18,965 nt of DNA from Bdellovibrionia bacterium (GTDB lineage: Bacteria > Bdellovibrionota > UBA1018), in assembly GCA_049424145.1 (NCBI GenBank), contig JBMSSC010000043.1:1-18965 (forward strand). Direction: 5' to 3'. Positions 1-16,582 of the stretch are shown in pieces; position 1 is the first letter of the stretch; each line of letters opens with the position of its first letter. Both the position numbers and the translations under genes were made by a program. Under the pieces are notes generated by a model that made no database searches, was not told where the DNA came from, and worked only from the letters and a program-made list of their open reading frames with translations.

Positions 1-1467
1 TATCACGATATTGTCCGAAAAATGCAGCAGACGAATTTACTGGAGACCTTGGCGCGCTTAAAAAAACCCACCGGAGTCGTGGCCAAAGCAGCAGGCCTAG
101 CTGGGGCTCCTTCGGGGGGTGGCGCAGATGTGGGGAGAGAAGGAGGTTCTGGGCCTAATGCCAGAAGCTCGTCTGCGCCCATGGATGCATGGACGGCGAT
201 GAAGCTTAGGATTCATAAAGCGTTAGTTGAGCAGATGGACCTCAAGAAGATGAACGTGGACACCAGTGATCAGAAGCAAAAGGGGATTTTAAGGGAGAAA
301 ACCCAAAAAGCCGTCTTAGATGTTTTGCAGAAAGAAGATACAGCCTCCCTTCTGCCTACTCGTGAGCTGAAGGCTCAGATTTTAAAAGAGATCCTAGATG
401 AGGCCTTAGGGCTCGGTCCTCTGGAGGATCTGCTGGCCGATGATGCCGTCACTGAGATCATGGTCAATGCCCGCGATCAAATTTACATTGAAAAAGCCGG
501 TAAGCCTCAGCTCTCTAAGGTGAATTTCTCTAGCGAATCCCAGATGATGAACGTCATTGAGCGAATCGTGACCCCTTTGGGTCGAAGAGTGGATGAGAAG
601 GTCCCCTATGTGGATGCTCGACTCGCCGATGGCTCGCGTGTTCATGTGATCATTCCGCCGCTTGCCTTAAGAGGGCCTACGATTACCATTAGAAAGTTTC
701 CAAAGAAGCGAGTTGAATATAAGGATCTCGTGGCCTTTGGTTCGATGACCGAGGAGATCGCCGATTTTCTCAGGTGCTGTGTGGAGGCCAAGTTGAATAT
801 TGTCGTCTCCGGGGGAACGGGTTCAGGAAAAACCACCCTATTGAATGTGCTCTCTAACTTCATTCCGGCAACTGAGCGAATCATTACGGTGGAGGACTCA
901 GCTGAGCTTCAGCTGGGTCAAGAGCATGTGGTGAGGCTTGAGGCGCGTCCAAAGAACATTGAGGGTGAAGGGGAAGTGAGTATCCGGGACCTGATCAAAT
1001 GCTGCCTGCGAATGCGTCCTGACCGAATTGTGGTGGGAGAGTGTCGAAGCGGAGAGGCCCTCGATATGCTACAGGCGATGAACACTGGGCATTCAGGTTC
1101 GCTCACCACGCTGCATGCCAATAATCCGCGCGAATGCATTGCGAGATTGGAGACTCTGGTGATGATGGCAGGTCTGGGGCTACCTGCAAAGGCGATTAAA
1201 GAAAATATCGCCTCTGCAGTCGGTTTGATTATTCAGCAAACCCGTCTCAGTGATGGCTCAAGGAAAGTCACTTACATTACAGAAGTGGTTGGGATGCAGG
1301 GTGAGGTCGTGAGTTTACAAGACATCTTTGTTTACAAACAAGAGGGCCTCGATAAGAAGAGAAAAATCATCGGTCGCTTTGTGCCAACTGGATTTATCCC
1401 GAAGTTCGTTGAGGAAATGGAGGCGAAAGGGATGAAGATTTCAAGAGGGCTGTTTGCAGCAAAATAG
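1..1467 (+). CDS. tadA: Tad/Flp pilus assembly ATPase TadA/CpaF, probably 5'-partial
   Basis: Walker A GGTGSGKT, Asp box TVEDSAEL, Walker B RPDRIVVGE, His box MNTGHSGSLTTLHAN, and CpaF-typical GLGPLEDLLADDAVTEIMVN and DARLADGSRV. The frame is open from base 1 (YHDIVRK before ATG 22), so the real start is probably upstream. Confidence 0.95.
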   Translation, partial: YHDIVRKMQQTNLLETLARLKKPTGVVAKAAGLAGAPSGGGADVGREGGSGPNARSSSAPMDAWTAMKLRIHKALVEQMDLKKMNVDTSDQKQKGILREKTQKAVLDVLQKEDTASLLPTRELKAQILKEILDEALGLGPLEDLLADDAVTEIMVNARDQIYIEKAGKPQLSKVNFSSESQMMNVIERIVTPLGRRVDEKVPYVDARLADGSRVHVIIPPLALRGPTITIRKFPKKRVEYKDLVAFGSMTEEIADFLRCCVEAKLNIVVSGGTGSGKTTLLNVLSNFIPATERIITVEDSAELQLGQEHVVRLEARPKNIEGEGEVSIRDLIKCCLRMRPDRIVVGECRSGEALDMLQAMNTGHSGSLTTLHANNPRECIARLETLVMMAGLGLPAKAIKENIASAVGLIIQQTRLSDGSRKVTYITEVVGMQGEVVSLQDIFVYKQEGLDKKRKIIGRFVPTGFIPKFVEEMEAKGMKISRGLFAAK

Positions 1468-1488
1468 CTGAAAGGAGCATGGGAGCCT

Positions 1489-2355
1489 ATGGGGTTGAAG
1501 TACCTGGGACTTTTCCTTCTTGGATTGGCTTTTTTCATCGGAGCCTATGTCTATAGTAATCGTTTCTTGGATTGGCTGCGTTTTCAGTCTCTAGGCACTC
1601 GAGATTACATCGTTGAGCGACTCGGAATGATGTTTATTGAAATTCCTCCTCAGAAGATTCTCCTGGGTCTATTTTTAATGAGCTTTGGGTTTGGTACCGT
1701 GGTGTTTCTGGCCTTCCTGCCTCATCTATTTCCAGGAATCCCTCTGGCCATACTCGCCACAGTGGTTGGGTGGAAGATTCCAAAACCCATTGTCAATTAC
1801 ATGTACAATCGGCGTGTGACGCTTTTTGTGACTCAGATGGTGGATGCGTTATCGTTGATGTCCAATGGAATGAAATCGGGATTATCAATTGTTCAGTCCT
1901 TAGGTTTGGTGACGCAAGAGATGCCAAATCCCATTCAGCAGGAGTTCAATCTTGTTTTAAGTGAGAACCGATTAGGGGTATCGCTTGAGGAGTCCTTTGG
2001 AAATCTAGCTAAGCGAATTAAGAGCGAAGATGTGGAGATGTTTGTCACATCAATCAATATTCTGAAGGAAACCGGAGGAAATCTGGCTGAGACTTTTGAT
2101 ACGATTGTTTTGACGATTCGAGAGAGAATTCGAGTGGAAAATAAAATTGGTGCTCTGACTGCCCAGGGTTACTATCAAGGTGTATTCGTGATGTGTATTC
2201 CGCCTGCATTGGCTCTCATTTTTTCACAAACAGATCCTGATTTTATGAAGCCACTTTTTACCACTCCTTTGGGGTGGGGTCTTATTTTTATTATATTTTT
2301 ACTCGAATTGGTCGGGTTTTTTGTGATTATGAAAATCGTTAAAATTGATGTTTAA
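1489..2355 (+). CDS. tadB: Tad pilus inner-membrane platform protein TadB (T2SS-F family)
   Basis: Several hydrophobic segments; TadB-type motifs DALSLMSNGMKSGLS, ETGGNLAETF and C-terminal KIVKIDV; directly downstream of tadA with GGGAG before the ATG. Confidence 0.92.
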   Translation: MGLKYLGLFLLGLAFFIGAYVYSNRFLDWLRFQSLGTRDYIVERLGMMFIEIPPQKILLGLFLMSFGFGTVVFLAFLPHLFPGIPLAILATVVGWKIPKPIVNYMYNRRVTLFVTQMVDALSLMSNGMKSGLSIVQSLGLVTQEMPNPIQQEFNLVLSENRLGVSLEESFGNLAKRIKSEDVEMFVTSINILKETGGNLAETFDTIVLTIRERIRVENKIGALTAQGYYQGVFVMCIPPALALIFSQTDPDFMKPLFTTPLGWGLIFIIFLLELVGFFVIMKIVKIDV

Positions 2356-2363
2356 AAAAAATC

Positions 2364-2393
2364 TTCACAACTCCCTATTTTATCGCTTATCAT
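2364..2393 (+). promoter_or_regulatory. Possible sigma70-type promoter for the RHS and small-protein genes
   Basis: TTCACA (2364-2369), 18-nt spacer, TATCAT (2388-2393) in the AT-rich gap after tadB. Confidence 0.3.
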
Positions 2394-2447
2394 AAAGTAT
2401 AGAAAAAATTAAGGGTGGCAGTCCGTTTGAATCAGGGGGATAAGAAG

Positions 2448-4130
2448 ATGATCTCGAGAAAATTTTATCAATCGCTGGTGTTAGGAGGGCTAGTCCTTTT
2501 GAGTTCATTGGATCCAGCTTTAGCCAATGTGAGCTTAAAGAACGGAAACTTCTTCATCGGATATACGGATCTTTTTTATTCCAATGGTTTGCAGCCTAAG
2601 ATTGAGCGTGTTTATAACTCGAAAACCCCGTATCGTGGCGCTTTTGGTTGGGGATGGGGTAATGAGTATGAAGTCTATCTCTCCGTTTCAGCCGACGGGA
2701 GCGTTGTGGTTCATGAGTACGGAGGAGGAGCAGAAAATCGATTTCTTCCTCTCTCCATGAGTGAGGCGGAACTGGATCGAGCCGTGGATGAGATTGCCAA
2801 AGTGGCTCAAAGCACGGGCGTGGCAGGAACTGGAGATCAGGTCACTGCCTATCGTAAGAAGCTCAAAAACGATGCCACCTTTAGAAATGACGAGTGGGAG
2901 AAGTTCCGCGCTCAAGGGAAGCTGAAGGTCCGTGAAATCCCGGTGAACACGCAGCTGAAATCCAATCGTTTTAGCTATCAGTACATCACTAAGGTGAAAG
3001 ACGGCTACCTTCGATCCTTTGATTCCGGTAAGACTCAGCGCTTTGATTCCAATGGTCGGCTGATTCAAGTGTCCGACAAGAATGGAAATTTCATAAAGAT
3101 TGTCAACAAGCCTGGTTTTAAACAACTCGTTGACAACTTCAATCATAAGATCGTCCTGAACTACAACAATCGAGGCCTCATCACCGAAGTTCAGGGAATG
3201 AATCAGGCGTCTGCAAAATACACCTATAACAACTTAGATGAGCTCGTGAAGAGCGTGGATGTGGATGGTCATGCCTTCACCTATAAGTATGACTCTCAAG
3301 GAAGGCATAACCTTCTTGAGATTGGCTATTCAGATAATACCAAAATGACCGTGGCCTATTATCCCATGGCTCAATTGGAGAGTGTGAAGAGCGTCAAAGA
3401 CCGAGATGGAACGATCACTGAGTACGAGTATCCCAGTGATTCCTCCGACAAGGAGCGCTACACGGTTCAGTTTAAAGTGAAGGGCACGGATGGAAAAGTG
3501 ATCTCACAGGGTAAGTACGATTACTTTAACAAGCGCAAAGCCGATGGTGAGGAGTGGACTCAGCGGCTGAGAACAGAGATTGATCAAGAGGTGACGGATA
3601 CTGTCTATAATGCAGCTTGTGGTTTGCCCGATTCCATTGAACAGGGAGGAGAGAAGACCTCTTTTAAATATGACTTAAAGTGCCATGTGACTGAAAAGTC
3701 CTCGCCCAAGGAAGTCACTGAGCTGGCATACGACTCGGCAGTGGATAAGGTGTCTTACGTCAAGAAGACCTCGCGTGAGAACCCAAAGCGTGAGCTCTGG
3801 TCGAAGTTTGTCTATGACACGAAGGGAAATCTCGTGAGCGCGAAGAATTCGGAGGGAAAATCCTCCCGCCTCGTGTATGACTCCGAGGGTCGAATTCGGA
3901 CGATCGCAGATGAAGCAGGGCACCAGGTTTCCTTTAAGTACGACGAGAACTCCAAGCCGGTGGAGATCTCTGATCCAAAACTGGGTACCATCACGGTGAC
4001 CTACACCAACTCGGGAGAGATTAAAAAGGTCGATAGCACGGCAGGAAAAGAAGTGGCTGCTCGAGTGACCCAGGAGTTCCAAGAGCTTTTGGATATTATC
4101 CGTCCTGCAGGTGTGAGCTTATCTTTCTAA
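2448..4130 (+). CDS. Secreted YD/RHS-repeat protein (560 aa), Bd0109-like
   Basis: ATG 2448 follows the SD AGGGGGA. Signal peptide ends ...DPALA. N-terminus of the RHS-associated type (KNGNF...ERVYNS...FGWGW). Many YD/YN repeats (YDSQGR, YDTKGNL, YDSEGRI, YDENSK). No PxxxxDPxG cleavage motif or toxin domain. Confidence 0.88.
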   Translation: MISRKFYQSLVLGGLVLLSSLDPALANVSLKNGNFFIGYTDLFYSNGLQPKIERVYNSKTPYRGAFGWGWGNEYEVYLSVSADGSVVVHEYGGGAENRFLPLSMSEAELDRAVDEIAKVAQSTGVAGTGDQVTAYRKKLKNDATFRNDEWEKFRAQGKLKVREIPVNTQLKSNRFSYQYITKVKDGYLRSFDSGKTQRFDSNGRLIQVSDKNGNFIKIVNKPGFKQLVDNFNHKIVLNYNNRGLITEVQGMNQASAKYTYNNLDELVKSVDVDGHAFTYKYDSQGRHNLLEIGYSDNTKMTVAYYPMAQLESVKSVKDRDGTITEYEYPSDSSDKERYTVQFKVKGTDGKVISQGKYDYFNKRKADGEEWTQRLRTEIDQEVTDTVYNAACGLPDSIEQGGEKTSFKYDLKCHVTEKSSPKEVTELAYDSAVDKVSYVKKTSRENPKRELWSKFVYDTKGNLVSAKNSEGKSSRLVYDSEGRIRTIADEAGHQVSFKYDENSKPVEISDPKLGTITVTYTNSGEIKKVDSTAGKEVAARVTQEFQELLDIIRPAGVSLSF

Positions 4131-4156
4131 TAGATGGAGTAAAACAGGAGAACAAG

Positions 4157-4414
4157 ATGAAAAAAGCAAGCTTAAGCAGTGGGATGATTCTGATGGCGTT
4201 GGTCCTTAGCATGGTGAGCGGAGGAACCGTGGTTTTCGCTAAAAGTACGACAACGAGTTCCGTGGGCGAATCCGAAACAAGGACAGGAGAGCACTCCGAC
4301 GGTCCAGCATGCTCCGCTGTGGCCGGGCGTCAGCTGAAGCCTAGCAGTGTTGAGAAGGGTACCACTTCCTCCACCAAGCAGGGTGAAATCGAAAAATCTG
4401 GCGTAGGCCGTTAG
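4157..4414 (+). CDS. Small secreted, probably disordered protein; positional equivalent of Bdellovibrio Bd0108 (hit)
   Basis: SD AGGAG at 4146-4150; signal peptide ending VVFA; 57-aa mature part rich in S/T/G/E/K with no F/W/Y; starts 26 nt after the RHS gene. Confidence 0.75.
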   Translation: MKKASLSSGMILMALVLSMVSGGTVVFAKSTTTSSVGESETRTGEHSDGPACSAVAGRQLKPSSVEKGTTSSTKQGEIEKSGVGR

Positions 4415-4495
4415 TTTTTTCTTCAGCCTGGGGCTTGAAGCTTCAGCAGGCATTCTGTCGTGGACTTTTTGGGGCGATTTTAGGTATCCAGCAAG

Positions 4496-4522
4496 AGGAT
4501 GACTAGGATGACTAGGATGACT
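4496..4522. repeat. Perfect 9-bp tandem repeat (AGGATGACT)x3
   Basis: Copies at 4496, 4505 and 4514. Confidence 0.85.
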
Positions 4523-4546
4523 CTTGTGACAACACCCCGTGAGAAG

Positions 4547-4566
4547 GGCTGGCTCAGGCTGGCTCA
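4547..4566. repeat. 10-bp tandem duplication (GGCTGGCTCA)x2
   Basis: Copies at 4547 and 4557. Confidence 0.7.
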
Positions 4567-4630
4567 GTTAAAAAAGCCCGGTTTTTTTAGAAAGCGGACC
4601 CTTAATTTTTGGAAGGTCTTGGGGCCTTGG

Positions 4631-5248
4631 ATGCACCCGAACTTCAGGCGGAGTTTACCGTGGATCTCAGCTGGGGTGATTTTACTGCTGGGGCAGCCGA
4701 CTTGGGCAAGAACCCCTCCCGCAATGAAACGAGCGATCCAAGAAGTCAGTCGAGCCGTGGAAGCGCTGACGATTCAGGCACCTCGGGACCAGGAAGTCTG
4801 CTTCAGTCCTGACGAGCCCTGCGATCTGAAGTTGATCAAGTTCATTCAAAGTGCACAGAAGTCTTTGGATATCGCCATTTACGATATCAATCTGGATCAA
4901 TTGGTTCACCATGTGATTCTCAAGTCAAAGACCATCCCGGTCCGTGTGATTGCGGACCGCAGGCAATCCAAGGGCGATCATAGTCTGGTTCCACTTTTAA
5001 TTCGCTCGGGGGTGAACCTTCGGTTTGGTAAGCAGCGGGGAATTTTTCACAATAAATTTGCAATCGTGGATGGCCTGATGCTGGAGACAGGAAGCTTTAA
5101 CTACACCAATCACGCGGCCCGCGCCAATAGTGAGAATCAGATCTACTTGCGTCAGCCTGAAATTGTGAACAAGTACCAAGATTTTTTTGAGCGATCCTGG
5201 AATCGAGCCACGCCTGCGGCCTCTGTTTCCTCTCGCCCGTCCCCATGA
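4631..5248 (+). CDS. Single-HKD phospholipase D-family protein, Nuc-like endonuclease, probably exported
   Basis: HNKFAIVD followed by ETGSFNYT...NSEN, plus FSP and SLDIAIY motifs. ATG 4631 gives a signal-peptide-like N-terminus (MHPNFRRSLPWISAGVILLLGQPTWA). The frame is also open from 4499, so the start is uncertain. Confidence 0.85.
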   Translation: MHPNFRRSLPWISAGVILLLGQPTWARTPPAMKRAIQEVSRAVEALTIQAPRDQEVCFSPDEPCDLKLIKFIQSAQKSLDIAIYDINLDQLVHHVILKSKTIPVRVIADRRQSKGDHSLVPLLIRSGVNLRFGKQRGIFHNKFAIVDGLMLETGSFNYTNHAARANSENQIYLRQPEIVNKYQDFFERSWNRATPAASVSSRPSP

Positions 5249-5298: not shown

Positions 5299-6906
5299 TT
5301 ACATTCGAAACACCCCAAACTGCGTGGACTCGATGGGAGCCCGGTGAATCGTGCTTAACGCTTGGGCTAAAACTTCTCTTGTTTTCCAGGGCAGTAGGAT
5401 ACCGTCGTCCCAGAGGCGAGCGGTGCTCGTGTAAGGGCTTCCTTCCGCTTCGTATTGCTCTCGGATGGGTTTTTCGATTTTTTCGATCTCACTGGGGCTT
5501 AATTTTTTCCCTGAGCTCTCCCATTGATCCCGTTTGACTTGGGAGAGCACGTTTGCCGCCTGATCTCCACCCATGACTGAGATTCTGGCATTGGGCCACA
5601 TCCAAAGGAATCGGGGTTGGTAAGCCCGACCGCACATTCCATAGTTTCCTGCCCCGAAGCTTCCCCCGACAATCACGGTGAGCTTTGGGACTTTCGCATT
5701 GGCCACGGCGGTGACCATTTTGGCGCCATCGCGTGCGATTCCACCGGACTCATAGCTTTTACCCACCATAAAGCCCGTGATGTTTTGGAGGAAGAGAAGC
5801 GGGATTTTCCTCTGCGCACAAAGTTCAATGAAGTGAGTGGCCTTCAGTGCGCTTTCGCTCAGCAGGATCCCGTTGTTCCCTAAAATTCCAATGGGGTATC
5901 CCCAGATGTGGGCAAACCCACAGACTAACGTTGTTCCATAAAGGGCTTTAAACTCCTGAAAGCGTGAGCCGTCGACGATTCGAGCAATTACTTCGCGAAT
6001 ATCAAAGGGGGTCTTTAAGTTTTCCGGGAGAATCCCGGCCAGCTCATGAGCTGGGTAAAGCGGCTCCTCAATCGGAGCTCGGTGGAGGGGGGGCAGAGGG
6101 CTCGGGTTCAGATGCTGGAGGATGTCTCGAGTGATCTGCAAGGCGTGCTCATCGTTTTGAGCCATGTGATCGGCGACTCCGGAGCTTCGGCAGTGAACGT
6201 CGGCTCCTCCGAGTTCCTCTGCGGTCACGACTTCACCGGTTGCAGCCTTCACTAAGGGAGGGCCCCCTAAAAAGATGGTCCCCTGGTTACGGACAATCAC
6301 AGTTTCCTCGGACATGGCCGGTACATAGGCTCCTCCCGCAGTGCAGGAGCCTAGGACCACTGCAATTTGGGGTATGCCCTGCGAGGACATCTGCGCTTGG
6401 TTGTAAAAGATACGCCCAAAATGATCTCGATCGGGAAACACTTCAGCTTGAAGGGGTAAAAAGGCCCCTCCTGAATCCACTAAGTACACACAAGGGAGTC
6501 GATTCTCTTGAGCAATTTCCTGGGCACGGAGGTGCTTTTTAACCGTCATCGGGAAGTAGGTTCCTCCCTTCACGGTGGCGTCGTTGGCGATGATCATCAC
6601 CTCTCGGCCATGGACCACGCCAATTCCGGTGACAATCCCGGCTGCGGGGGCTGCTTGGTCATAGAGTCCCCAGGCAGCCAGAGCAGAGAGCTCGAGAAAC
6701 TGGGATCCCGGGTCAATTAAGGCTTCAATTCGGCTTCGAACAAAGAGCTTGCCTCGTTTCTCATGGCGCAGTCGGGCGTCAGGACCTCCTCCTTGATGCA
6801 CTTGCTTGAGTCGCTCCTCGAGCTCTTGGGCTAAGGCGTGGTTTTTTTTTGCGTTGGCTTGGAAGAGCGGAGATCCCGGATCAATTGCAGATTTCAGTTG
6901 CGGCAT
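5299..6906 (-). CDS. liuB: 3-methylcrotonyl-CoA carboxylase beta (carboxyltransferase) subunit
   Basis: [43 protein letters not shown]-terminal FGVFRM. SD AGGAAGG precedes ATG 6906 (MPQLKS). Confidence 0.93.
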
Positions 6907-7165
6907 GATGATTTTCCTTCCTACGCTCGGGTTCAGCTCAAGGGAGAGGGATGGGTGAATCGTGACTCTCTTGCGCATGGATCGATTGGAGCGCTTGGAC
7001 TAGGCTTAGTTTTAAATCGGGAAAGCTCGCTTGGGAAGCCCTTGTGTGGAATTCTTTTTTTCTCCTTCCGTCTGAGGTGGGGTAGAATTTCAGGTATTCC
7101 GTTTGTTTTCTGTGGAGACTCGGAGCATATAGGAATGAAAAACCAAACTCAAAACGGGGGTTCCC

Positions 7166-7966
7166 ATGACCAAATCAACTATTGAGCTGACGCAGGATTC
7201 TCGGGGGGTTCTTTTTGTCTGCTTGAATCGGCCCGAGGTCCGCAATGCGTTTAATGAACGGATGATTGAGGAGCTATCGGAGGTGTTCTCCACCCGAGCC
7301 AAATCTCCAGACGTCCGAGTGGTGGTCCTCCGTGGCCAGGGATCTGTATTCTGTGCAGGAGGGGATTTAAACTGGATGAAAAAATCCGTTGAGGTCTCCG
7401 TTCAAGAAAACTTCAAAGACACCCAGAGGCTCACTCAGATGTTTAAGACGATTCAGGAATGTCCCAAGCCTGTGGTGGGAGTGGTTCACAAGGCTGCCAT
7501 TGGAGGGGGCGTGGGATTAGTCAGCGTTTGTGATTGGGTTTTAGCTTCAGCTCAAACGGAGTTCAGTCTGAGCGAAGTGCGGCTGGGCATTGTTCCTGCT
7601 TGCATTGGTCCCTTTGTGATTTCTAAGATTGGGGCCTCTCAAGCACGGGCACTCTTTATTACTGCTCAGCGGTTTTTAGCTCAGCGAGCCTATGAGATTG
7701 GGTTGGTGCATCAGGTGATCCCAGAGGAGGACCAGCTGGATTCAGCCTTGGAGATGCTGTTAAAAACCATGCTTCAATGTGGTCCGCAAGCAATTGAAGT
7801 AGCAAAGAAGTTGGTTTTAGATTTATCCTGGCCCGAGAGGCGAGCGGAGATTACGGATTGCTATGATTATGTCGCTCAGGTGCTGGCTGATCTCAGGGTG
7901 ACGCCTGAGGCGCAGGAAGGAGTTCGGGCATTTTTGGAGAAGCGAAAGCCCCGTTGGCTCGCTTAG
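7166..7966 (+). CDS. liuC: Enoyl-CoA hydratase family protein, probably methylglutaconyl-CoA hydratase
   Basis: LNRPEVRNAFN, FCAGGDLNWM, AIGGGVGLV, SEVRLGIVPA, EGVRAFLEKRKPRW; liu gene context. Confidence 0.88.
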   Translation: MTKSTIELTQDSRGVLFVCLNRPEVRNAFNERMIEELSEVFSTRAKSPDVRVVVLRGQGSVFCAGGDLNWMKKSVEVSVQENFKDTQRLTQMFKTIQECPKPVVGVVHKAAIGGGVGLVSVCDWVLASAQTEFSLSEVRLGIVPACIGPFVISKIGASQARALFITAQRFLAQRAYEIGLVHQVIPEEDQLDSALEMLLKTMLQCGPQAIEVAKKLVLDLSWPERRAEITDCYDYVAQVLADLRVTPEAQEGVRAFLEKRKPRWLA

Positions 7967-8041
7967 GTCTCAGGATAGAAACTCCGGTCAGCAGCAGACT
8001 GCTGAGGCGGAAAATGAGCGATGAAAGAAAGAGAGTGGTTC

Positions 8042-9523
8042 ATGAGGGCGCAGAAAAAATCCCCGAAGCTGCTAGTGGCAAATCGGTCTGAGATTGCATG
8101 TCGAATTTTTCAGACGTGTCGAGAGATGGGGATTCCTACAGTTGGCATTTTCGCACCCGGCGATGAGCAATCCCGGCATGTGACTTATGCTGACGAGGTG
8201 GTGGAGGTGGGCGGTTACCTGGACATTCACTCCATTCTTCAGGCCGCAAAACAGACGCAATCCACTTTGATTCATCCGGGGTATGGTTTTTTATCAGAGC
8301 GACCGGCTTTTGCCCAGGCCGTCGAGGAGGCGGGGCTTACGTTTGTGGGGCCTCGTGCTGAGACGATGCGCCTGATGGGGGATAAGATTGCAGCTAAGGA
8401 CTTAGCCCAGGCCCATCAAGTCCCCACTCTGCCTTGGGCTAAGATTCCCTTGGGCAGTGATCTATTTGAAGCCGCTCGGACGGTAGGTTACCCCTTGCTC
8501 CTGAAAGCAGCAGCAGGGGGAGGGGGGAAGGGAATGCGCTTGGTTCGTCAAGAGCAGGACCTTCAGCAAGCGGCTGAAAGTGCACGTGCGGAGGCTCTAG
8601 CGGCGTTTGGAGATGGAACTTTATTTTTTGAGCACTATGTGGAATCTCCGCGGCACATTGAGGTTCAAGTCTTTGGCGATGGCCAAGGCGGAGGGGTTCA
8701 CCTGAGGGAGCGGGAGTGTTCGCTTCAAAGGCGGCACCAAAAGATTTGGGAGGAGGCCCCGGCGGTACACCTCGGGGATGAGACCCGAGAGGCCCTTTAT
8801 GAGGCGGCCATGCGCTTGGTGGCAGCCACTTCTTATCTCAGCGCCGGGACGTTGGAGTTTTTAGTGGACTCCCGTGAGCGGTTTTATTTTCTTGAGATGA
8901 ACACGAGGCTTCAAGTGGAGCATCCGGTGACGGAATTGATTACGGGCGTGGATTTAGTTTGGGCACAGATTGCTCTGGCGCTGAATCCGGATCGGTTTCC
9001 CCTAAAGCAGCCTCCGGTCAGTCGGGGGCACGCCATTGAAGTTCGTCTCTACGCCGAGGATCCGGCTCAAGGCTTTATCCCGACTCCTGGAAGGATTGAA
9101 AAGCTCAAGTGGCCAACGGGTCATGGGATTCGAATTGAAAGTGGAATTGAAGAAGGTCAGAGCATCGGAGTGCAGTTTGACTCCATGTTAGGTAAGCTCA
9201 TTGTACTGGGAGAGAGTCGGGAGCAAGCCTTAGCGCGGCTTCGGTTTGCTCTGGAGGAGACGGTGATTCTCGGCTCTGGAACGAATCAAAATTATCTCAT
9301 GCGAGTGGCGGAGCATCCTCGAGTGGTTCAGGGAAAAGTGCATACCCATTTTTTAGAAAAAGAGTTTGCACCATTTGAGCCCAAGCCTTCGGATGAAGAG
9401 TTGGAGTTGTTTTTGGCCCTCAAGCGGAAGGCCGTAGGACGCTCCATTGGGTTTTCAGGGGGTTCGTCCATCGGTGAGGAGCAGGCCTTGTTTCCTTCTC
9501 CTTGGTTTGTGGCGAGGAAATGA
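8042..9523 (+). CDS. liuD: Biotin carboxylase, N-terminal part of the methylcrotonyl-CoA carboxylase alpha subunit
   Basis: LLVANRSEIA, IHPGYGFLSE, KAAAGGGGKGMR, RECSLQRRHQK, EMNTRLQVEHPVTE; no biotinyl domain. Alternative start at 8021. Confidence 0.92.
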   Translation: MRAQKKSPKLLVANRSEIACRIFQTCREMGIPTVGIFAPGDEQSRHVTYADEVVEVGGYLDIHSILQAAKQTQSTLIHPGYGFLSERPAFAQAVEEAGLTFVGPRAETMRLMGDKIAAKDLAQAHQVPTLPWAKIPLGSDLFEAARTVGYPLLLKAAAGGGGKGMRLVRQEQDLQQAAESARAEALAAFGDGTLFFEHYVESPRHIEVQVFGDGQGGGVHLRERECSLQRRHQKIWEEAPAVHLGDETREALYEAAMRLVAATSYLSAGTLEFLVDSRERFYFLEMNTRLQVEHPVTELITGVDLVWAQIALALNPDRFPLKQPPVSRGHAIEVRLYAEDPAQGFIPTPGRIEKLKWPTGHGIRIESGIEEGQSIGVQFDSMLGKLIVLGESREQALARLRFALEETVILGSGTNQNYLMRVAEHPRVVQGKVHTHFLEKEFAPFEPKPSDEELELFLALKRKAVGRSIGFSGGSSIGEEQALFPSPWFVARK

Positions 9524-9534
9524 GGTGTCCGTCC

Positions 9535-10032
9535 ATGAGTGTCACGTTTAAAATTTCAGGCCAAAAGATTCAAGTCCAAGGCAGTCCCTCACGGCAGTGG
9601 GAGTTTACAATCCGTCCGGGAGGATGGGTGATTGCGGAAGCTTCCTGTGTGAATGACAAAGGGGAAACCGTTCGACTCAGGCGTCGGTTGATGGTGCATG
9701 AGGTGAGCAATCGGCTGAGTCTTCAATTGGGGCAAAGTGCCTGGTGGGCAGAGTGTCTCCAGGAGTCAGTTGGGCTGTCTCAGGAGATGGCAAGGGATCT
9801 ACAGTCCGAGTTGACGGCTCAGTTTCCAGGAAAGATCAGGAAAATCCGCGTGGAGGTCAATCAGCCCGTGGAGTCAGGCGAAGTCCTTCTTTTGGTCGAG
9901 GCCATGAAGATGGAGTTTTCAATTCGGGCTCCCTCTGCAGGCAGGGTTCGCAAGTACCTTGTCGTCGAAGGTGAGTCAGTGGTTCCTGGCACTCAGTTTT
10001 TAGAGTGGGAGGAGAGCTCAAGTGAGCCGTGA
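9535..10032 (+). CDS. Biotin carboxyl carrier protein, C-terminal part of the MCC alpha subunit
   Basis: EAMKME biotinylation motif; SD GAGGT at 9522-9526 before ATG 9535. An alternative ATG at 9520 overlaps the upstream TGA. Confidence 0.88.
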   Translation: MSVTFKISGQKIQVQGSPSRQWEFTIRPGGWVIAEASCVNDKGETVRLRRRLMVHEVSNRLSLQLGQSAWWAECLQESVGLSQEMARDLQSELTAQFPGKIRKIRVEVNQPVESGEVLLLVEAMKMEFSIRAPSAGRVRKYLVVEGESVVPGTQFLEWEESSSEP

Positions 10033-10942
10033 TCGGGTACGAATTTTTGAAGTGGGGCCTCGGGATGGACTTCAAAACGAGCCCCGGCGGCTTGGACTCG
10101 AAAAAAAAGTCCGCTTCATTCACCAGTTGATGGATGCCGGGTTACGCGACATTGAACTCGGGGCCTTTGTCAAGTCCGAGCGAGTGCCTCAAATGGCGGA
10201 TACGGATCAGCTGGTCGCTCAAGTTCGTAGTCGGTTTTTAAAGACGCGCATGGCTCGGGCATGGTGTTTAGTTCCCAATCGACGAGCCTTGCATCGAGCC
10301 TTGGAAGTGGGGGTCTCTCAAATTGCTCTTTTTACAGCGGCAACGGAAAGCTTCACTCAAAACAACATTGGCATGTCGATTCGTGAGTCCTTAGGTGAGT
10401 TTAGAGCGGTGATTGAAGAGGGACGAAGGGTTTTGGGTAAGTCGTTTCAAGTTCGAGGCTATGTTTCAACGGTATTTGGGTGCCCTTTTGAAGGATCCGT
10501 TCAGCCTGCGCAAGCCTTGCGCGTGATCGAAAAGATGAGAGCTCTTGGGGTGGATCAGCTTTCCGTGGGGGACACAATTGGAGTGGCTACTCCCAGGCAA
10601 GTGGACCGAGTGATCCCATCGGCATTGGCAAGTTGGGGAGTGGATCGCATGGCGGTTCATTTTCATGACACTCGAGGAACGGCTTTAGCCAATGTGCTTC
10701 GAGCCCTTGAGCATGGGGTTAGGATTGTGGATAGTTCTGCAGGGGGCCTAGGGGGTTGTCCTTTTGCTCCGGGAGCGGCAGGAAATTTAGCGACTGAGGA
10801 CTTAGTTTACATGCTCGAGGGGATGGGTCTTGTCACTGGAGTTGATCTGAATCGGCTATGCGAGGCGAGTCTTGAGATGGCTCGAGCGCTCAGGCGACCT
10901 TTGACGAGTCGGTACTTGCAGTCGTATTACACTAAAAAATAG
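10022..10942 (+). CDS. liuE: Hydroxymethylglutaryl-CoA lyase
   Basis: EVGPRDGLQNE, HFHDT, GLGGCPFAPGAAGNLATED; GTG start with GGAGGAG SD; overlaps the BCCP gene by 11 nt. Confidence 0.95.
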   Translation: MSRDRVRIFEVGPRDGLQNEPRRLGLEKKVRFIHQLMDAGLRDIELGAFVKSERVPQMADTDQLVAQVRSRFLKTRMARAWCLVPNRRALHRALEVGVSQIALFTAATESFTQNNIGMSIRESLGEFRAVIEEGRRVLGKSFQVRGYVSTVFGCPFEGSVQPAQALRVIEKMRALGVDQLSVGDTIGVATPRQVDRVIPSALASWGVDRMAVHFHDTRGTALANVLRALEHGVRIVDSSAGGLGGCPFAPGAAGNLATEDLVYMLEGMGLVTGVDLNRLCEASLEMARALRRPLTSRYLQSYYTKK

Positions 10943-11027
10943 AAAATGAATTCACTCTAAAAACACGGGTAAGCGCCTTTCTGCTGAGCATCGAGTGCAC
11001 TTGAGCAGGTTAGTTTTTATTTTTTTG

Positions 11028-11043
11028 TGGAATAGAATTAGCA
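11028..11043 (+). promoter_or_regulatory. Candidate sigma54 (-24/-12) promoter for the DksA/TraR gene
   Basis: TGGAAT-AGAAT-TAGCA (GG 11029-30, GC 11041-42). Predicted +1 about 11054, just before the SD at 11061. Weaker match, and the internal TAGAAT could instead be a sigma70 -10. Confidence 0.4.
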
Positions 11044-11075
11044 GAGTTCAGACCTCTTTAAAGGAGGGATTCTCT

Positions 11076-11474
11076 ATGGATGGAAAAACGGCTCAGGAAG
11101 TGAAAGAAGCCCTGCTTGCTCGCTGGAAGCGAATTGCACGTAAATTTCCCGATCGCCTTCAGGAGTCGGCTTCAGAGGACTACAGTGGATCTCAAGCGGC
11201 TGAGATTATCGATATGGCTCAAGCTTTAGAGCAGATTGGTCGAGACGCCTCATTGCAAGAGGCCGAACGGCGGGAGTTGTTAGCCATTGAGCGGGCTTTG
11301 GCCAAGATGGCCACGGGGAGTTATGGGGTGTGTGAGGACTGTTTGGATGAAATTCCACTTAAGCGCCTTTTGGCTTTACCGGAGGCCAGGCTTTGTGCTC
11401 AGTGCCAGGCCTTTGAAGAAAAGCAAAACACCCGGAGCCGTTGGTCTGGAAATTGGATTCGAGGATCAGCATGA
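11076..11474 (+). CDS. TraR/DksA family C4 zinc-finger transcription factor
   Basis: SD AAGGAGG at 11061-11067; coiled coil with EIIDMA tip; ALAKMATGSYGVCEDC-x17-CAQC zinc finger. Confidence 0.92.
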   Translation: MDGKTAQEVKEALLARWKRIARKFPDRLQESASEDYSGSQAAEIIDMAQALEQIGRDASLQEAERRELLAIERALAKMATGSYGVCEDCLDEIPLKRLLALPEARLCAQCQAFEEKQNTRSRWSGNWIRGSA

Positions 11475-11547
11475 ATGAAGCTGCTGAGGCGCAATCGAAA
11501 TCCCGTGTAGCGAGCGAAGAGGGGATGAGGCAGGGATGATCTAGCTT

Positions 11548-11563
11548 AGGCCTAGAATTTGCT
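11548..11563 (+). promoter_or_regulatory. Candidate sigma54 promoter for the 62-aa ORF
   Basis: AGGCCT-AGAAT-TTGCT (GG 11549-50, GC 11561-62). Predicted +1 about 11574, directly before AGGAG 11575-79. Confidence 0.55.
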
Positions 11564-11591
11564 TAAGTCTTCTTAGGAGTGAATCAGTGCC

Positions 11592-11780
11592 ATGGCTTTT
11601 GCTAATTCCTGGAGACGGGTAGGTCATTTTCTTTTTCTTGTACTGACTGCTTTAGGTTGGATTGTTCCTTGGACTGTTCCTCATGCCTTTGAAAAAGAAT
11701 CGATGGAGTTCAAGAATTCGTTGCGGCAGCCGGTTATCGCTTTCCAGTGGGTAACGCAGGACCAACCTTTTTCGGATTAG
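11592..11780 (+). CDS. Putative small single-pass membrane protein (62 aa), unknown function
   Basis: AGGAG upstream (spacer 12 nt, rather long); basic WRR followed by hydrophobic FLFLVLTALGWIVPW; promoter motif upstream. Confidence 0.45.
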   Translation: MAFANSWRRVGHFLFLVLTALGWIVPWTVPHAFEKESMEFKNSLRQPVIAFQWVTQDQPFSD

Positions 11781-12012
11781 TTCTCTTTTCTAAGGTGAAG
11801 GATGAGAGCTCGCCTGATTCCCTAAACTGTTGGAGATGAAGCGAGTTGAGGGATTGCAAGATGCATCGTTCAAATAGCAAGTGTGGATCGAGATTGCACT
11901 CGCTTCGCTGCACGTTCTGGGTTCTTGAGGTCGTTTCGATTCGTCTGGGAAAAGCCTCCAGTAGGCTTGGGTTGGCTGCTTTTTTGGGGAGTCCAATTCA
12001 GGATTCAGATTT

Positions 12013-12028
12013 TGGCATCTGAATTGCT
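12013..12028 (+). promoter_or_regulatory. Sigma54 (-24/-12) promoter, near consensus
   Basis: TGGCAT-CTGAA-TTGCT versus consensus TGGCAC-N5-TTGCW; GG 12014-15, GC 12026-27; predicted +1 about 12039. Confidence 0.7.
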
Positions 12029-12038
12029 TTGAGGCGGG

Positions 12039-12318
12039 AGACTCATTTGAGTTTCGGGTTGAGAAGGTTGAGTCCGAACTTTTGTTCAGGAATCAGGCAC
12101 GCGATGAGGAACCAAGATGAAGGATGAAAGTTGAGGTACGAGGTGAGGCAATCAGGCTCGTATTTGGTTCTAACGGTCATCAATAGTCTAGGTAATGGGG
12201 ATATGAAATTTCTGCGCCCATCAAAGAGAAGGCGTTCGTCAGATCCATCAAGCGGAGGAACTCGTTTGATCTGAATGGAGAGAGTGATTGGGTGAGCGAA
12301 CCGAAAGGTTCTTTTTTT
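12039..12318 (+). ncRNA. Putative sigma54-dependent small RNA (~280 nt); no family recognised
   Basis: Bounded by the sigma54 motif and a terminator. Hairpins at 12038-12055, 12076-12087, 12214-12235 and 12239-12274. The ATG-initiated + strand ORFs I found are at most 23 codons. Confidence 0.4.
12298..12318 (+). terminator. Intrinsic terminator
   Basis: GAACC-GAAA-GGTTC followed by T7; the stem is short (5 bp) with a GNRA loop. Confidence 0.55.
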
Positions 12319-12443
12319 GAATGATTTGAAGAGAATGAGTTGAAGTGACTGCGATTTGACTGAGAAGTAGTAAAAGAGAAGTAAATGATATGAAGAGAAG
12401 AGTTAAAAAAATAGACGATAAAAAATAAAATTTCCGAATCAAG

Positions 12444-12470
12444 AAAAAACAGAAGAGTTCATCTTCTGTT
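12444..12470 (-). terminator. Hairpin that may terminate minus-strand transcription
   Basis: AACAGAAGA (12448-56) / TCTTCTGTT (12462-70), perfect 9-bp stem with 5-nt loop; the adjacent + strand A-run gives a U-tail on the minus strand. Confidence 0.4.
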
Positions 12471-13049
12471 CTGAATTAAAGAGGTCATCAGGTTGAGAGT
12501 CAAAAGAGCTCTTGGTCTGATTTTTTTATTTTCTCAACCCCTGACTCTAAAGTTTAATTTTTAAAGATAAAAAAATCTAAAATCTCTGAATCTCTTCAGA
12601 TGGTTCGAGATTTTTGTGTTATCCCTAGTTTTGTTTTGAACATGCTGACATCTTGGGCTAGGCAAAAAAAAGAGTTTTTACGCTTTGATTCTTTTTCTAA
12701 AAAAATCGAATTCAAAAGCTTAGAGATTTTTTCTTCTCCGGTGGTTGAACAAACTTTCTGGATTTTGAGTTTTCCTTTCGTGCGTTTAAAAAATACTGAT
12801 TTTAGATTCAATCAGAAAGTTGGCTTTTTTGATTTACAACTTCACGAGTTGAATTTATTAGTCTGTTTTTTGGACTTAAGGTTGGGTTTTCGATGGTTCA
12901 CACGGAGGAGTCCTTGTTCTCAGCTTGGGTTAAAAGAGTGGGTTTCTAGTTTTTTATTTTCTGGGTTCAGAGGAGTCATTTTGGTCTTCTTTCAAAAGCA
13001 TTTCAATTCCAGTTGGTTCAAAAGGTTAAAAAAACAAGGCCTCCAGTTC

Positions 13050-14264
13050 ATGCAAGTGCTACGGCAGAAGGATCCAGGAAAGTCGAAACAGCCTGGGGTT
13101 CAAGGACTATTAAGAGATAAGCAAATTGCGGACCTGGTCTCCGATCTCCTATTGGATGGAATTGTCTTGCTGCGTTCGGATCGGATCGTTTATTTCAATC
13201 GCCGCGGAGCTCAGATTCTAGGACTCCCGCCCAGAGCTTTGCCTCAGGACCTGAGCCTCGCTTTGGTCGGGGAGCAATATTCTCAAGAAGCAGAGCAGGT
13301 GATTCGATCGGCTCTGTCCCATGGGACACCGATGAAGTTTGAGCTCAAAACCGAGCAAGGGAGTTTTTACTTTCTCGTTCACGCCTTTACCTTCAGAGAG
13401 GATCGCTACCCTCACCTCGTTTTGGATCGTCCTGAACTCGGTTCGTTCATGTCCGATGGGGATTCCGTCGCAGACGCTTTAGTTTTGGCTCAAGATATTA
13501 CTTTAGTTGAGGAGTCAAAAGCAGCTAAAGAGAAGTTTCTTGGGGATTTGTCTCATGAGATTAAGACCCCATTGACCAGTCTGACGCTAGCGACGCGATT
13601 ATTGAGAAGGAGCTTGGAATCTCAAAATCCTTCGGATCAGCTGCAGCTCATCGCGACCTGCATTGAAAGTGTGGATCGACTGAGAGTCCTAATTGATGAG
13701 CTTTTGACCACCTCGCGGTTTGATGGGTTGACCTATCACCCGTTGCTTCAGTGGGTCGACGCATTGAAGTTGGTGCAAAATGGGGTGCACTCATTTTTGA
13801 AAGAATTCCGTGCAAAAGGAGTTCTCTTGAGTTTTCAAGGGAGCTTTGAGGCCGGAGCAGTGCGCCCCCTTCAGGCTCAAGTGGATCCCTCTCAGCTGAC
13901 CTGGGTACTCTCCATTTTTTTGTCTCAGGCTTTAAGGGGATCAGAAAAAGGAGATTCGGTAAAAGTGGAGTGCAGGGGCTCCCCCCAATCGTTTTCGGTT
14001 CAGATTTCTACTCCTCCTTCGGTCATTGAATCCCTGAGTCAAGAGTTAGCTTTGGATTCAACGGGGTCCGCTGATCCTCTGAGGTGCCATTCGTTCGATT
14101 CTCGGGGCGTCGGGCTTTCGATTGCAAAGAAGATCATCGTGGCTCACGGGGGCTGTATTTCACTCACCCAACCAACTCAGCAGGGAGGGCTGATTTATTT
14201 TATCATTCCGATTCAAAGTGGAGGAGAGAGGATCAGGACTTCCAGTTTTGATGGGGCATCTTAG
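13050..14264 (+). CDS. Cytoplasmic PAS-HisKA-HATPase sensor protein (KinB-like) with degenerate ATP-binding boxes
   Basis: PAS-like LLLDGIVLLRSDRIVYFNRRGAQILG...QDIT; H-box LSHEIKTPLTS; G2-like GVGLSIAKKIIVAHGG. Start set at ATG 13050 because the 150 upstream codons lie in T-rich, intergenic-looking DNA. Confidence 0.82.
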   Translation: MQVLRQKDPGKSKQPGVQGLLRDKQIADLVSDLLLDGIVLLRSDRIVYFNRRGAQILGLPPRALPQDLSLALVGEQYSQEAEQVIRSALSHGTPMKFELKTEQGSFYFLVHAFTFREDRYPHLVLDRPELGSFMSDGDSVADALVLAQDITLVEESKAAKEKFLGDLSHEIKTPLTSLTLATRLLRRSLESQNPSDQLQLIATCIESVDRLRVLIDELLTTSRFDGLTYHPLLQWVDALKLVQNGVHSFLKEFRAKGVLLSFQGSFEAGAVRPLQAQVDPSQLTWVLSIFLSQALRGSEKGDSVKVECRGSPQSFSVQISTPPSVIESLSQELALDSTGSADPLRCHSFDSRGVGLSIAKKIIVAHGGCISLTQPTQQGGLIYFIIPIQSGGERIRTSSFDGAS

Positions 14265-14331
14265 GGTTTATTCAACGCATTCATGGAGTTAACACAGCAC
14301 AATGGTATTGAGATTGAGAAAGGGGTTCTGA

Positions 14332-15843: not shown

Positions 15844-16401
15844 TTAAGATCCCCAGCCGTGAGGGCAATCCTCTTGGTCCGCCAATTCAATGACCTGGTG
15901 GATGGCGGTGAGAAGCTGACTGGCTGTTTGGGAATTCGATAGGATTCCACAGATCTCCGCTCCCCTGAGCTCAAAGAGGGTCATGGTTTTTCCGTCCTTG
16001 AGTTTCAGCTGAACACTCCCGTCTAAATAGCGGGGCGTTTCAGGGACGGGAAAACAGAGTCCCTCTTGAAGGTGCGACGCAGTGGCTGCAGCATTCGCGC
16101 CTAAGGCGAGAGGGTTCCAGGTGTTCAGTGCGATGGCGCCATAGGCCTCTCTGCCACAGGCATTTCGAGAGGTTGCAAAGTGCGCGGCGGGAGAGACGCG
16201 AGTTTTAGCCGAGTTCGCAAGAATCACCATTTCGTCCCAACCTGAAGCGTAAGTAAGAGGAGGGGAGCTCGGTGTGACCGCAGGGAGGGGTTCTGAGGGC
16301 TGTGCCGTTTGAGGAGAGTCTTCAATCTTGGGGTCCCGGATGGTGAGAAAACAACCTGAAGTAAAGAGGGTGAATGCAAGCGCAATCCAAACGTTGAACA
16401 T
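15844..16401 (-). CDS. Hypothetical lipoprotein (185 aa)
   Basis: AAGGTGG SD before ATG 16401; MFNVWIALAFTLFTSGC lipoprotein-type signal; Pro/Ser-rich tether after the Cys. Confidence 0.75.
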   Translation of the reverse strand: MFNVWIALAFTLFTSGCFLTIRDPKIEDSPQTAQPSEPLPAVTPSSPPLTYASGWDEMVILANSAKTRVSPAAHFATSRNACGREAYGAIALNTWNPLALGANAAATASHLQEGLCFPVPETPRYLDGSVQLKLKDGKTMTLFELRGAEICGILSNSQTASQLLTAIHQVIELADQEDCPHGWGS

Positions 16402-16450
16402 AGATTCCACCTTGTTGGCTCAGGTTTTTTCAGCTGGGTTCCCATGAAAT

Positions 16451-16466
16451 TGCAAGTCGAGTGCCT
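16451..16466 (-). promoter_or_regulatory. Sigma54 promoter for the 185-aa lipoprotein
   Basis: Minus strand AGGCAC-TCGAC-TTGCA; predicted +1 about 16440, 39 nt before the ATG. Confidence 0.72.
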
Positions 16467-16501
16467 GGTTCGGATCCTCTGGTTCGGGTCCGATGAGTCG
16501 G

Positions 16502-16543
16502 GGAAGAAGGAGTTCCGGATGGCTTCCCTTCGCTCCTTCTTCC
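16502..16543. repeat. Inverted repeat between the two lipoprotein genes
   Basis: GGAAGAAGGAG / CTCCTTCTTCC perfect 11-bp arms with a 20-nt loop, about 40 nt past the upstream stop codon. Confidence 0.6.
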
Positions 16544-16582
16544 TGATGACTGGGGCTCTGAATTGTGATTTTTGTCTCACCC

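Follow-up and report, generated by a model that had tools for sequence, protein, structure and literature searches.

The window, a stretch of 18,965 nucleotides from the start of contig C43 of a Bdellovibrionota genome, begins with four open reading frames that lie in the same direction on the plus strand within positions 1-4414. The first (1..1467), which is open at its 5' end, covers the 3'-terminal two-thirds of a fused cpaE-cpaF (tadZ-tadA) gene, which encodes the Tad pilus ATPase and corresponds to Bd0111 in Bdellovibrio bacteriovorus (PF00437, E = 2.6e-65). The second, tadB (1489..2355), encodes an inner-membrane platform protein (PF00482, T2SSF, E = 2e-16) that corresponds to Bd0110 and aligns at 46% over 268 aa with the protein of B. 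bacteriovorus strain YOA24. The third (2448..4130) encodes the orthologue of Bd0109, a YD protein of 560 aa from the ATG at position 2448, with DUF6531 (E = 1.6e-9) and RHS repeats (E = 2.2e-18), and the fourth (4157..4414) lies in the position of bd0108 and encodes a peptide of 85 aa with a predicted signal peptide, one cysteine and a low-complexity tail. The spacers measure 92 nt between tadB and the YD gene and 26 nt between the YD gene and the small gene. In the window, tadC does not directly follow tadB, and the succession of tadB, a YD protein and a small protein is as an earlier sequence-only reading had described it. A possible sigma-70-type promoter (2364..2393, plus strand; TTCACA-18-TATCAT, 10/12) lies in the AT-rich spacer upstream of the YD gene, and a consensus scan placed a terminator-like stem with a T run where the small gene ends (4398..4424, plus strand). 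The region contains three sigma-70-type sites versus 2.8 in shuffled sequences, so that the promoter is not above chance and is a weak lead, and with five terminator-like sites versus 3.5 in shuffles the terminator is likewise a lead only.

The first gene had previously been taken for tadA. It does encode a T2SSE ATPase, but not a stand-alone one: it aligns with residues 237-703 of the 739-aa fusion protein of B. bacteriovorus YOA24 at 55% identity, while residues 8-213 of the same protein match another contig of the genome, C129, where the 5' part of cpaE-cpaF (6392-7027) reaches the contig end. In all four same-family relatives checked, cpaE-cpaF is a single ORF of 720-725 aa. Judged by these alignments, the first gene is a CpaE(TadZ)-CpaF(TadA) fusion that has lost its N-terminal third to truncation by the contig start. 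In 4/4 of these relatives, flp through the YD gene form one uninterrupted operon, which implies a gap of about 66 unassembled nt between C129 and the window. No bridge was found at the window start among the contig pieces listed, and the join therefore rests on homology to the relatives.

Besides the 5' part of cpaE-cpaF, contig C129 carries flp, tadV, cpaB and cpaC, with matches to Flp1_like (E = 6.5e-9), Peptidase_A24 (the tadV prepilin peptidase, at 2418-2957), RcpC (E = 3e-24), Secretin (E = 1e-14) and a ParA/CbiA-type CpaE. The Tad/flp cluster that had been expected is present in the genome, on C129. A T2SSF-type tadC, which had been anticipated elsewhere in the genome, was located on contig C86 together with three FHA genes. 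Flp pilin, CpaB, CpaC secretin, CpaE, CpaF, TadB and TadC are all encoded in the genome; the TadE match was weak (E = 0.022). The genome also contains seven flagellin-family matches and two PilT matches. It is highly probable that the four genes form the end of a Bdellovibrionota Tad (Kil-type) pilus operon.

As a reference for Bd0109 we used the locus of B. bacteriovorus strain YOA24 (L053) and not HD100 itself. The signal cut of its YD protein (AFA-LV) and its 101-aa neighbour (ASA-DE) agree with the published description (PMC3818213), and the neighbour scores 102 bits on the NCBIfam model hit_Bd0108 (NF053838, cut-off 40 bits), which confirms L053 as the hit locus. The YD protein of the window and that of YOA24 are reciprocal best matches, with 33% over 543-545 aa (pairwise E = 4e-85), so that the full-length similarity to Bd0109 set beforehand as a test was indeed observed. 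The YOA24 protein retrieved only C43 2517-4121 from the genome (E = 3.6e-81; next match 0.13), and the reverse search with the YD protein of the window retrieved one locus, in a genome with a protein 99% identical to that of L053. DUF6531 and RHS_repeat are present in both proteins. The YD locus is almost certainly orthologous to the hit locus of Bdellovibrio.

The gene order of the bd0108-bd0119 hit/TAD locus, flp-(tadE-like)-cpaB-cpaC-cpaE/cpaF-tadB-YD-small secreted peptide, matches that of C129 and the window as joined through the relatives, and the order flp-cpaB-cpaC-cpaE/F-tadB-YD-small is common to L053 and 4/4 same-family relatives. In B. bacteriovorus, too, tadC lies elsewhere, beside FHA genes. 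The operon studied here includes tadV, which is missing from Bdellovibrio but present in Bacteriovoracaceae (PMC5430801), and the small gene is followed by a PLD-family gene rather than by a second small, Bd0103-like gene as in Bdellovibrio. The Kil system of Myxococcus xanthus, a Tad-like apparatus for contact-dependent killing that was compared by description, also consists of a Tad machine spread over two clusters and FHA-domain proteins. Conservation of Kil has been reported across predatory lineages, class UBA1018 among them (PMC8460266, PMC13200544). An FHA domain forms the N-terminus of KilF (PMC8460266), but the ATPase of the window is fused to CpaE. We found no mention of a YD protein in the Kil literature passages available to us.

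We searched for the YD protein in 401 sampled Bdellovibrionota genomes and obtained matches in 392; the Atlas clusters nearest to it are also mostly from Bdellovibrionota. Synteny of bd0109-bd0113 across cultured predators has been published (PMC5430801). In our sample, tadB is located directly upstream of the YD gene in 75 of the 78 genomes with room to tell, and a small ORF with a signal-peptide-like start lies downstream in 66/75 genomes, as compared to 45 of 660 long ORFs of the window's genome that were scored with the same heuristic as a control; the gene order is not due to chance. At least one cysteine is present in 64/66 of these ORFs, and a peptide that combines a signal peptide, a cysteine and a disorder-rich composition occupies the slot in 62/75 genomes versus 12/660 controls; no small gene was found downstream of the YD gene in 9/75. 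Counted by family, the gene order is kept in 33 of the 35 families sampled and the slot is filled by such a peptide in 28. The link to the tad genes is not universal, since the YD gene lies away from them in two genomes of one family (f23) and is inverted in one genome of another (f16). A second YD copy outside the tad operon (L160) retains its own small Cys-bearing partner.

The module had been proposed to be orthologous. This holds for Bd0109, by reciprocal match, and for the Tad operon; the small peptide corresponds to Bd0108 by position only. It belongs to no Pfam or NCBIfam family. Standard annotation would indeed overlook the locus. Neither the peptide nor any other protein of the genome matched NF053838 at E = 0.01; scores above the cut-off of that model occur in 22 of the 401 genomes of the phylum, all from one genus, with L053 as the positive control. 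In a pairwise comparison with Bd0108, 134/2000 shuffles scored equally high, and the profile-profile comparison (hhalign) gave a probability of 0.09%. An HMM built from 43 Bdellovibrionaceae-type peptides did not recover the peptide among the 369 ORFs listed at E = 200, and no match was found in the PDB. Sequence homology to Bd0108 was rejected on the negative outcome of the shuffles, the HMM, hhalign, NCBIfam and the PDB search. The peptide also differs from the 101-aa Bd0108, which has a CxxC motif, in its length and its one cysteine, and CxxC was found in 0/26 same-family peptides; it also lacks the conserved N-terminal residues 32-40 of the Bd0108 family and any NPGxDP-like stretch at its N-terminus. 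Both contain 86% disorder-promoting residues, and the disorder of the peptide is deduced from this composition. An HMM of 34 positional counterparts, from which the window peptide was excluded, ranked it first among 14,337 small ORFs of the genome (E = 0.086), and its frame is intact in the contig of a variant strain, where the 15 listed differences comprise 7 synonymous and 8 non-synonymous changes. By these sequence comparisons the peptide is Bd0108-like in position and make-up only, with no detected sequence homology. Small Bd0108-like genes have been published for uncultured Bdellovibrionales (PMC10469934); we found no passage on Bd0108 or Bd0109 in the available parts of PMC11656739 and PMC12827227. 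No sigma-54-like or sigma-28-like site for the small gene was identified in positions 1-4500, and a looser sigma-28 pattern matched 10 times in 53 upstream regions, which is not above shuffles (mean 6.8, maximum 14).

The YD protein consists of a predicted signal peptide, DUF6531, a helical insert (106-155), YD/RHS beta-hairpins and, at the C-terminus, an amphipathic helix that is conserved, and its AlphaFold model has a pLDDT of 91.7 and a pTM of 0.85. Its cysteines include a pair at 390/391 in its own order, whereas the distant rows of the alignment have cysteines at four other positions. The suggestion that the YD protein and the peptide are secreted agrees with their predicted signal peptides, which were recognized by eye and with a hydrophobicity heuristic rather than with SignalP, and which would be cut near ALA-NV and VFA-KS, respectively. 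No solved member of the Bd0109 family was found in the PDB by sequence and fold searches. In Foldseek, the model matched Rhs shells with a query TM of at best 0.54 and E-values down to 3e-22.

In B. bacteriovorus, Bd0108 and Bd0109 both have signal peptides and bind each other in a fuzzy complex with a Kd of 45 uM, bd0108-bd0111 are co-transcribed pairwise, and bd0108 mutants are altered in piliation and tend towards growth without prey, while bd0109 resisted deletion (PMC3818213, PMC4267844). The pili affected by bd0108 are the type IVa PilA pili and not the Tad pili (PMC3818213), so that the module may have another target than the Tad pilus. The reading that we prefer, to which we assign a probability of roughly 80%, is that the locus combines the end of a Tad operon with a Bd0109-type accessory protein and a pilus-tuning peptide. 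The CpaE-CpaF ATPase fusion and TadB would then assemble the pilus, and the toxin-less YD protein would be an exported accessory of the machine. Its sheet amounts to roughly half an Rhs shell and is therefore presumably open, so that it may form a groove for binding and not a cage for a toxin. The peptide, which is small and likely secreted and disordered, would probably bind weakly in this groove and tune the activity of the pilus, as in Bdellovibrio, and the machine would act in contact with prey. We consider the chances of a Bd0108-like regulatory role for the peptide to be about even.

The domain content of the YD protein might instead indicate an Rhs polymorphic toxin with an immunity gene, inserted after tadB. 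It shares the DUF6531 N-terminus and the YD beta-hairpin sheet with T6SS Rhs effectors and Tc BC shells (PDB 8qja, 7q97, 4igl), to which its fold was matched, and a small gene lies downstream. However, the alignment to 8qja covers 539 columns versus 1020 residues (query TM 0.54), about half the length of a shell, and the RHS_core score is 32 bits versus a cut-off of 2000. In contrast to the Rhs effectors, the protein has a predicted Sec signal and no PAAR or VgrG, and neither a core protease, a toxin tip nor a DPxG motif was found in it. Its C-terminus is conserved and not variable, the gene tree agrees with taxonomy, and the small protein combines a predicted signal peptide with a likely disordered tail. 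The protein has neither a closed shell (above 1000 aa) nor a PxxxxDPxG core nor a variable toxin tip, and the toxin-immunity explanation is largely refuted and highly improbable. A less remote, though still unlikely, alternative gives the YD protein a structural place in the Tad system, in the periplasm or the outer membrane, such as that of a secretin partner or a cell-wall anchor, and treats the peptide as an unrelated lineage-specific secreted micro-protein that plays no part in a switch. A structural role is the second model put forward for Bd0109 (PMC3818213) and would suit a YD gene that is nearly universal and tied to tadB, next to a peptide that shares no sequence with Bd0108 and was not found in 9/75 genomes; moreover, in 15/31 long spacers the small gene is preceded by a sigma-54-like site of its own. 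On the other hand, the filled slot in 62/75 genomes, far above chance, and the small partner retained by the L160 copy argue for a coupled pair of YD protein and peptide, as in the preferred reading. We tentatively suggest, at somewhat less than even odds, that the hit switch, far from being confined to Bdellovibrio, is ancestral to predatory Bdellovibrionota and pairs a toxin-less half-Rhs protein with a disordered, secreted peptide that carries Cys and is hypervariable, and to which many lineages gave its own sigma-54 promoter. If so, breaking the small gene could give prey-independent growth and a route to culturing predators such as those of UBA1018.

A quick gene tree of the YD protein with SH-aLRT support recovered the order of the window's organism (100) and a 16-row clade with B. 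bacteriovorus (100). The tree follows taxonomy, as expected of vertical descent, and by this gene sequence the organism groups with class UBA1018 of the Bdellovibrionota, outside Bdellovibrionia, in line with the divergent lineage that had been suspected. To our knowledge, the class has no cultured representative, and none of its members has been observed preying. Tad pili are general adhesins, and the operon might serve for adhesion or for forming biofilms in an organism that is facultative or not a predator at all, to which the label of a predation locus could not be transferred. Given how common the module is across the phylum, its presence carries no specific information on this genome, and chorismate synthase, which counts against a predatory reading, is retained. 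PMC13200544 describes UBA1018 cells as predator-like in appearance and equipped with a Kil/Tad system, but possibly not dependent on predation only; according to the same paper, the non-predatory Oligoflexia were removed from the phylum in GTDB R226. Against the use in adhesion, every member of the neighbouring classes that has been cultured is a predator with the same synteny (PMC5430801, PMC13200544), and the layout of the tadC-FHA cluster is similar to that of Bd0470-Bd0474, a cluster required for killing (PMC6561027); tadC and flp mutants of B. bacteriovorus cannot predate (PMC6561027, PMC5430801). A requirement of such pilus systems for attaching to or killing prey is published for B. bacteriovorus and M. 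xanthus. The genome encodes HMG-CoA reductase, and HisD was not found at 95% completeness. This combination is typical of predators. We therefore regard adhesion or biofilm formation as improbable, and a predatory use of the machine as likely by analogy with the cultured relatives.

The locus is a further example of a known system, in an uncultured relative of Bdellovibrio, and is ordinary by itself because nearly all sampled genomes of the phylum carry the YD gene. It extends the published locus to one more uncultured lineage; the pair of YD and small genes is not named for class UBA1018 in the main text of PMC13200544, although the supplement may show it. The divergent pair, with one cysteine, no CxxC and no Bd0108-like N-terminus in the peptide, can be used in comparisons that ask which features of Bd0108 matter, and the analysis also supplies a confident predicted model of a Bd0109 orthologue.

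The window is one entire contig (C43) of a source genome of 2.69 Mb that is 95% complete, and its bases 1-4414 contain four ORFs, all on the plus strand. These encode an ATPase of the T2SSE family (1-1467, 5' end open), TadB (1489-2355) and a 560-aa protein with DUF6531 and RHS repeats (P0001; 2448-4130), each identified by a family match, followed by an 85-aa ORF without any family match (4157-4414). The sequence-only reading, in which tadB is followed by a YD protein and a tiny ORF in a co-directional set of four, was thus correct on gene order. The hit-type locus is real, was rightly recognized and is ordinary for the phylum. Conserved gene order of bd0109-bd0113 among cultured Bdellovibrionaceae and Bacteriovoracaceae has already been published (PMC5430801). 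Small signal-peptide genes are known beside Bd0109 homologs in Halobacteriovorax (PMC4267844), and of 21 Bdellovibrionales bins from sludge, 20 have such a gene (PMC10469934). In the part of the literature covered, which includes the main text of PMC13200544, we found neither a YD-small gene pair named for the class UBA1018 nor a report of a sigma-54 promoter for such a pair.

We compared P0001 to the hit locus of B. bacteriovorus strain YOA24 (L053), which is a valid stand-in for the published locus since its small neighbor scores 102 bits on the NCBIfam model hit_Bd0108 (NF053838) and both of its signal cuts agree with the published ones (PMC3818213). P0001 aligns at 33% over 545 columns with the 550-aa YD protein of this locus. 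The P0001 gene is the sole significant match of the L053 protein in the genome of the window (E-value 3.6e-81; next 0.13), and in the reverse direction P0001 found a single match in a genome encoding a protein 99% identical to that of L053; the two are each other's best match and, judged by sequence, P0001 is the Bd0109 ortholog. An AlphaFold2 model of P0001 built from 134 sequences (pLDDT 91.7, pTM 0.85) contains 39 strands, a helical insert (106-155) and an amphipathic C-terminal helix (533-554), which lies within one of the best conserved parts of the protein. Foldseek ranks Rhs, teneurin and Tc shells highest, with a best query TM of 0.54 over 539 columns to a 1020-residue shell, and the DPxG core motif is absent. 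We infer that P0001 forms an open half-shell that lacks both a protease and a cargo, the same absence that has been remarked for Bd0109 (PMC4267844).

The first gene had been read as tadA; its ATPase is of the T2SSE family, but it is not a stand-alone protein. In the 739-aa CpaE-CpaF fusion of L053, residues 8-213 match another contig of the source genome, C129, and residues 237-703 match the window. All four same-family genomes compared over a longer region have an unbroken operon, in which the two matches are separated by 66 nt within one ORF of 720-725 aa. On these split matches, the window starts inside a predicted cpaE-cpaF fusion gene, and C43 most likely continues directly from C129, a join that we infer since no contig bridging the gap was found. 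C129 carries, in this order, an flp pilin, a second flp-like ORF, an A24 prepilin peptidase, two TadE-like ORFs, cpaB (the single RcpC/CpaB match in the genome), a BON/secretin-type cpaC and a CpaE-type ORF truncated by the end of the contig, and thereby supplies the expected Tad/flp cluster. The tadC gene, expected elsewhere, was found on contig C86 (1-5259, minus strand), followed by genes for DUF192, an FHA-PAS membrane protein, an FHA-TPR protein and a double-FHA protein, a cluster with the same layout as the predation-essential Bd0470-Bd0474 (PMC6561027), to which it is likened by gene order alone. Three further CpaF/TadA-like ATPases, on C136, C137 and C180 (35-50% to the B. bacteriovorus CpaF domain), along with two pilC-type and two pilT genes, point to several pilus systems.

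P0001 was searched against a sample of 401 genomes of the phylum and matched 392 of them (333 of the 336 of good quality); some weak matches may represent other RHS proteins. Gene context was compared in 81 genomes (29 best matches, 10 by handle and 42 at one or two per matching family), a kin-rich sample and not a random draw. One genome, G252, fell below the script threshold and was dropped though tadB is located just 5' of its match, leaving 80 genomes from 35 families. The tadB gene directly precedes the YD gene in 75 of the 78 genomes with upstream room; the three exceptions (L157, 14660-19637 in G002; L158, 14184-15974 in G059; L159, 13809-15569 in G010) are one f16 genome and two f23 genomes. 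In the f16 genome, the YD gene and its small partner are inverted and converge on tadB; in the f23 genomes the YD gene neighbors an lgt-like gene, and a stretch of about 20 kb contains no tad gene. G024 has a second, diverged YD gene (L160, 9559-11541, minus strand) that lies away from the tad operon and has its own small signal-peptide partner with a CxxC motif, while the small gene of the tad-linked copy is without Cys; this second pair suggests that the two genes travel as a unit. In a quick tree of 63 proteins the order of the window was grouped (SH-aLRT 100), with the window nested in a 10-row clade (SH-aLRT 97) that includes proteins named FG-1, FG-2 and GWB1_55_8 at NCBI. FG-1 and FG-2 belong to the family and class UBA1018 (proposed Bdellonasia), the sister of Bacteriovoracia (PMC13200544), in agreement with the divergent Bdellovibrionota lineage proposed earlier. 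A Kil system is reported for 81% of the good genomes within the phylum (PMC13200544).

The 85-aa small gene is probably real. An HMM of 34 same-order positional counterparts, with the window peptide left out, ranked this peptide first among 14,337 small ORFs of the genome, at an E-value of only 0.086. Among 75 genomes with enough sequence 3' of the YD gene, 66 (28 families) have a small ORF there with a heuristically identified signal peptide, as compared to 45 of 660 for long ORFs of the window's genome; if a disorder-rich tail was also required, the counts were 62 of 75 versus 12 of 660. Cys is present in 64 of the 66, of which at least one (L109) looks spurious and another (L027) is located 483 nt away. 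The reading frame is kept in a variant-strain contig, where 7 of the 15 differences listed are synonymous and 8 are non-synonymous; at least 15 differences fall in the 258-nt gene (17 listed in 596 nt, with 16 further ones in the stretch beyond those listed). A contig within the YD gene, which need not derive from the same strain, has 1 difference in 835 nt. The small peptide may evolve fast even between strains.

By sequence the small peptide does not belong to the Bd0108 family: 134 of 2000 shuffles score as well in the pairwise comparison with Bd0108, hhalign gives a probability of 0.09%, NF053838 does not match, and CxxC occurs in none of 26 same-family peptides, 22 of which have one Cys. 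Only 22 of the 401 genomes contain a protein that scores above the NF053838 cut-off, and these belong to a single genus. The proposed orthologous hit module therefore holds for the Bd0109 ortholog after tadB, but its small protein appears Bd0108-like by position and make-up, not by sequence.

Among YD-small spacers of at least 70 nt in relatives, a sigma-54-type site (TGGCAC-N5-TTGC) occurs in 15 of 31 (e.g., L006, L007, L008, L011, L017, L018, L025, L107, L108, L113, L117, L144, L148, L149), against a shuffle mean of 0.05 (maximum 2) and a background of 11 in 1073 upstream regions. Two of the 31 (L004, L005) have a sigma-28-type site. Neither type was found in the window or in any of 36 loci with short spacers. 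It seems that in relatives the peptide gene has repeatedly acquired a promoter of its own.

In B. bacteriovorus, bd0108-bd0111 are co-transcribed pairwise, bd0109 could not be deleted, and bd0108 mutations alter piliation and favor prey-independent growth (PMC3818213). Bd0108 binds Bd0109 weakly via its N-terminal part (PMC4267844), and predation needs Flp pilins and tadC (PMC5430801, PMC6561027). By orthology, the genes of the window would form the same pilus; the YD protein would be a putative exported accessory of the machine, and the small peptide its probable modulator.

Whether the organism is a predator, as had been suggested, was assessed from gene content. Seven flagellin-family matches, two PilT matches, an HMG-CoA reductase and the failure to find HisD in the 95% complete genome indirectly support predation; presence of HMG-CoA reductase and absence of HisD fit predators. 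The presence of chorismate synthase counts against it, as does the doubt that class UBA1018 relies on predation only (PMC13200544).

Directly 3' of the small gene is a PLD-family gene (NucT-like, below cut-off; 4499-5248, plus strand) with a possible signal peptide after an internal Met, which is not kept at that position in the relatives looked at; no second small gene was seen there in the window. It is followed by a leucine-degradation-type cluster (5299-10942) with a carboxyltransferase (minus strand), enoyl-CoA hydratase, biotin carboxylase, biotin carrier and HMG-CoA lyase-like gene. Region 10995-15702 contains a DksA/TraR zinc-finger gene, an AT-rich stretch (GC 0.37 at 12001-13000) and a histidine kinase with an NtrC-family sigma-54 activator. 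Two neighboring ORFs of 188 and 295 aa without Pfam match (15844-17470, minus strand) are Cys-rich and lipoprotein-like.
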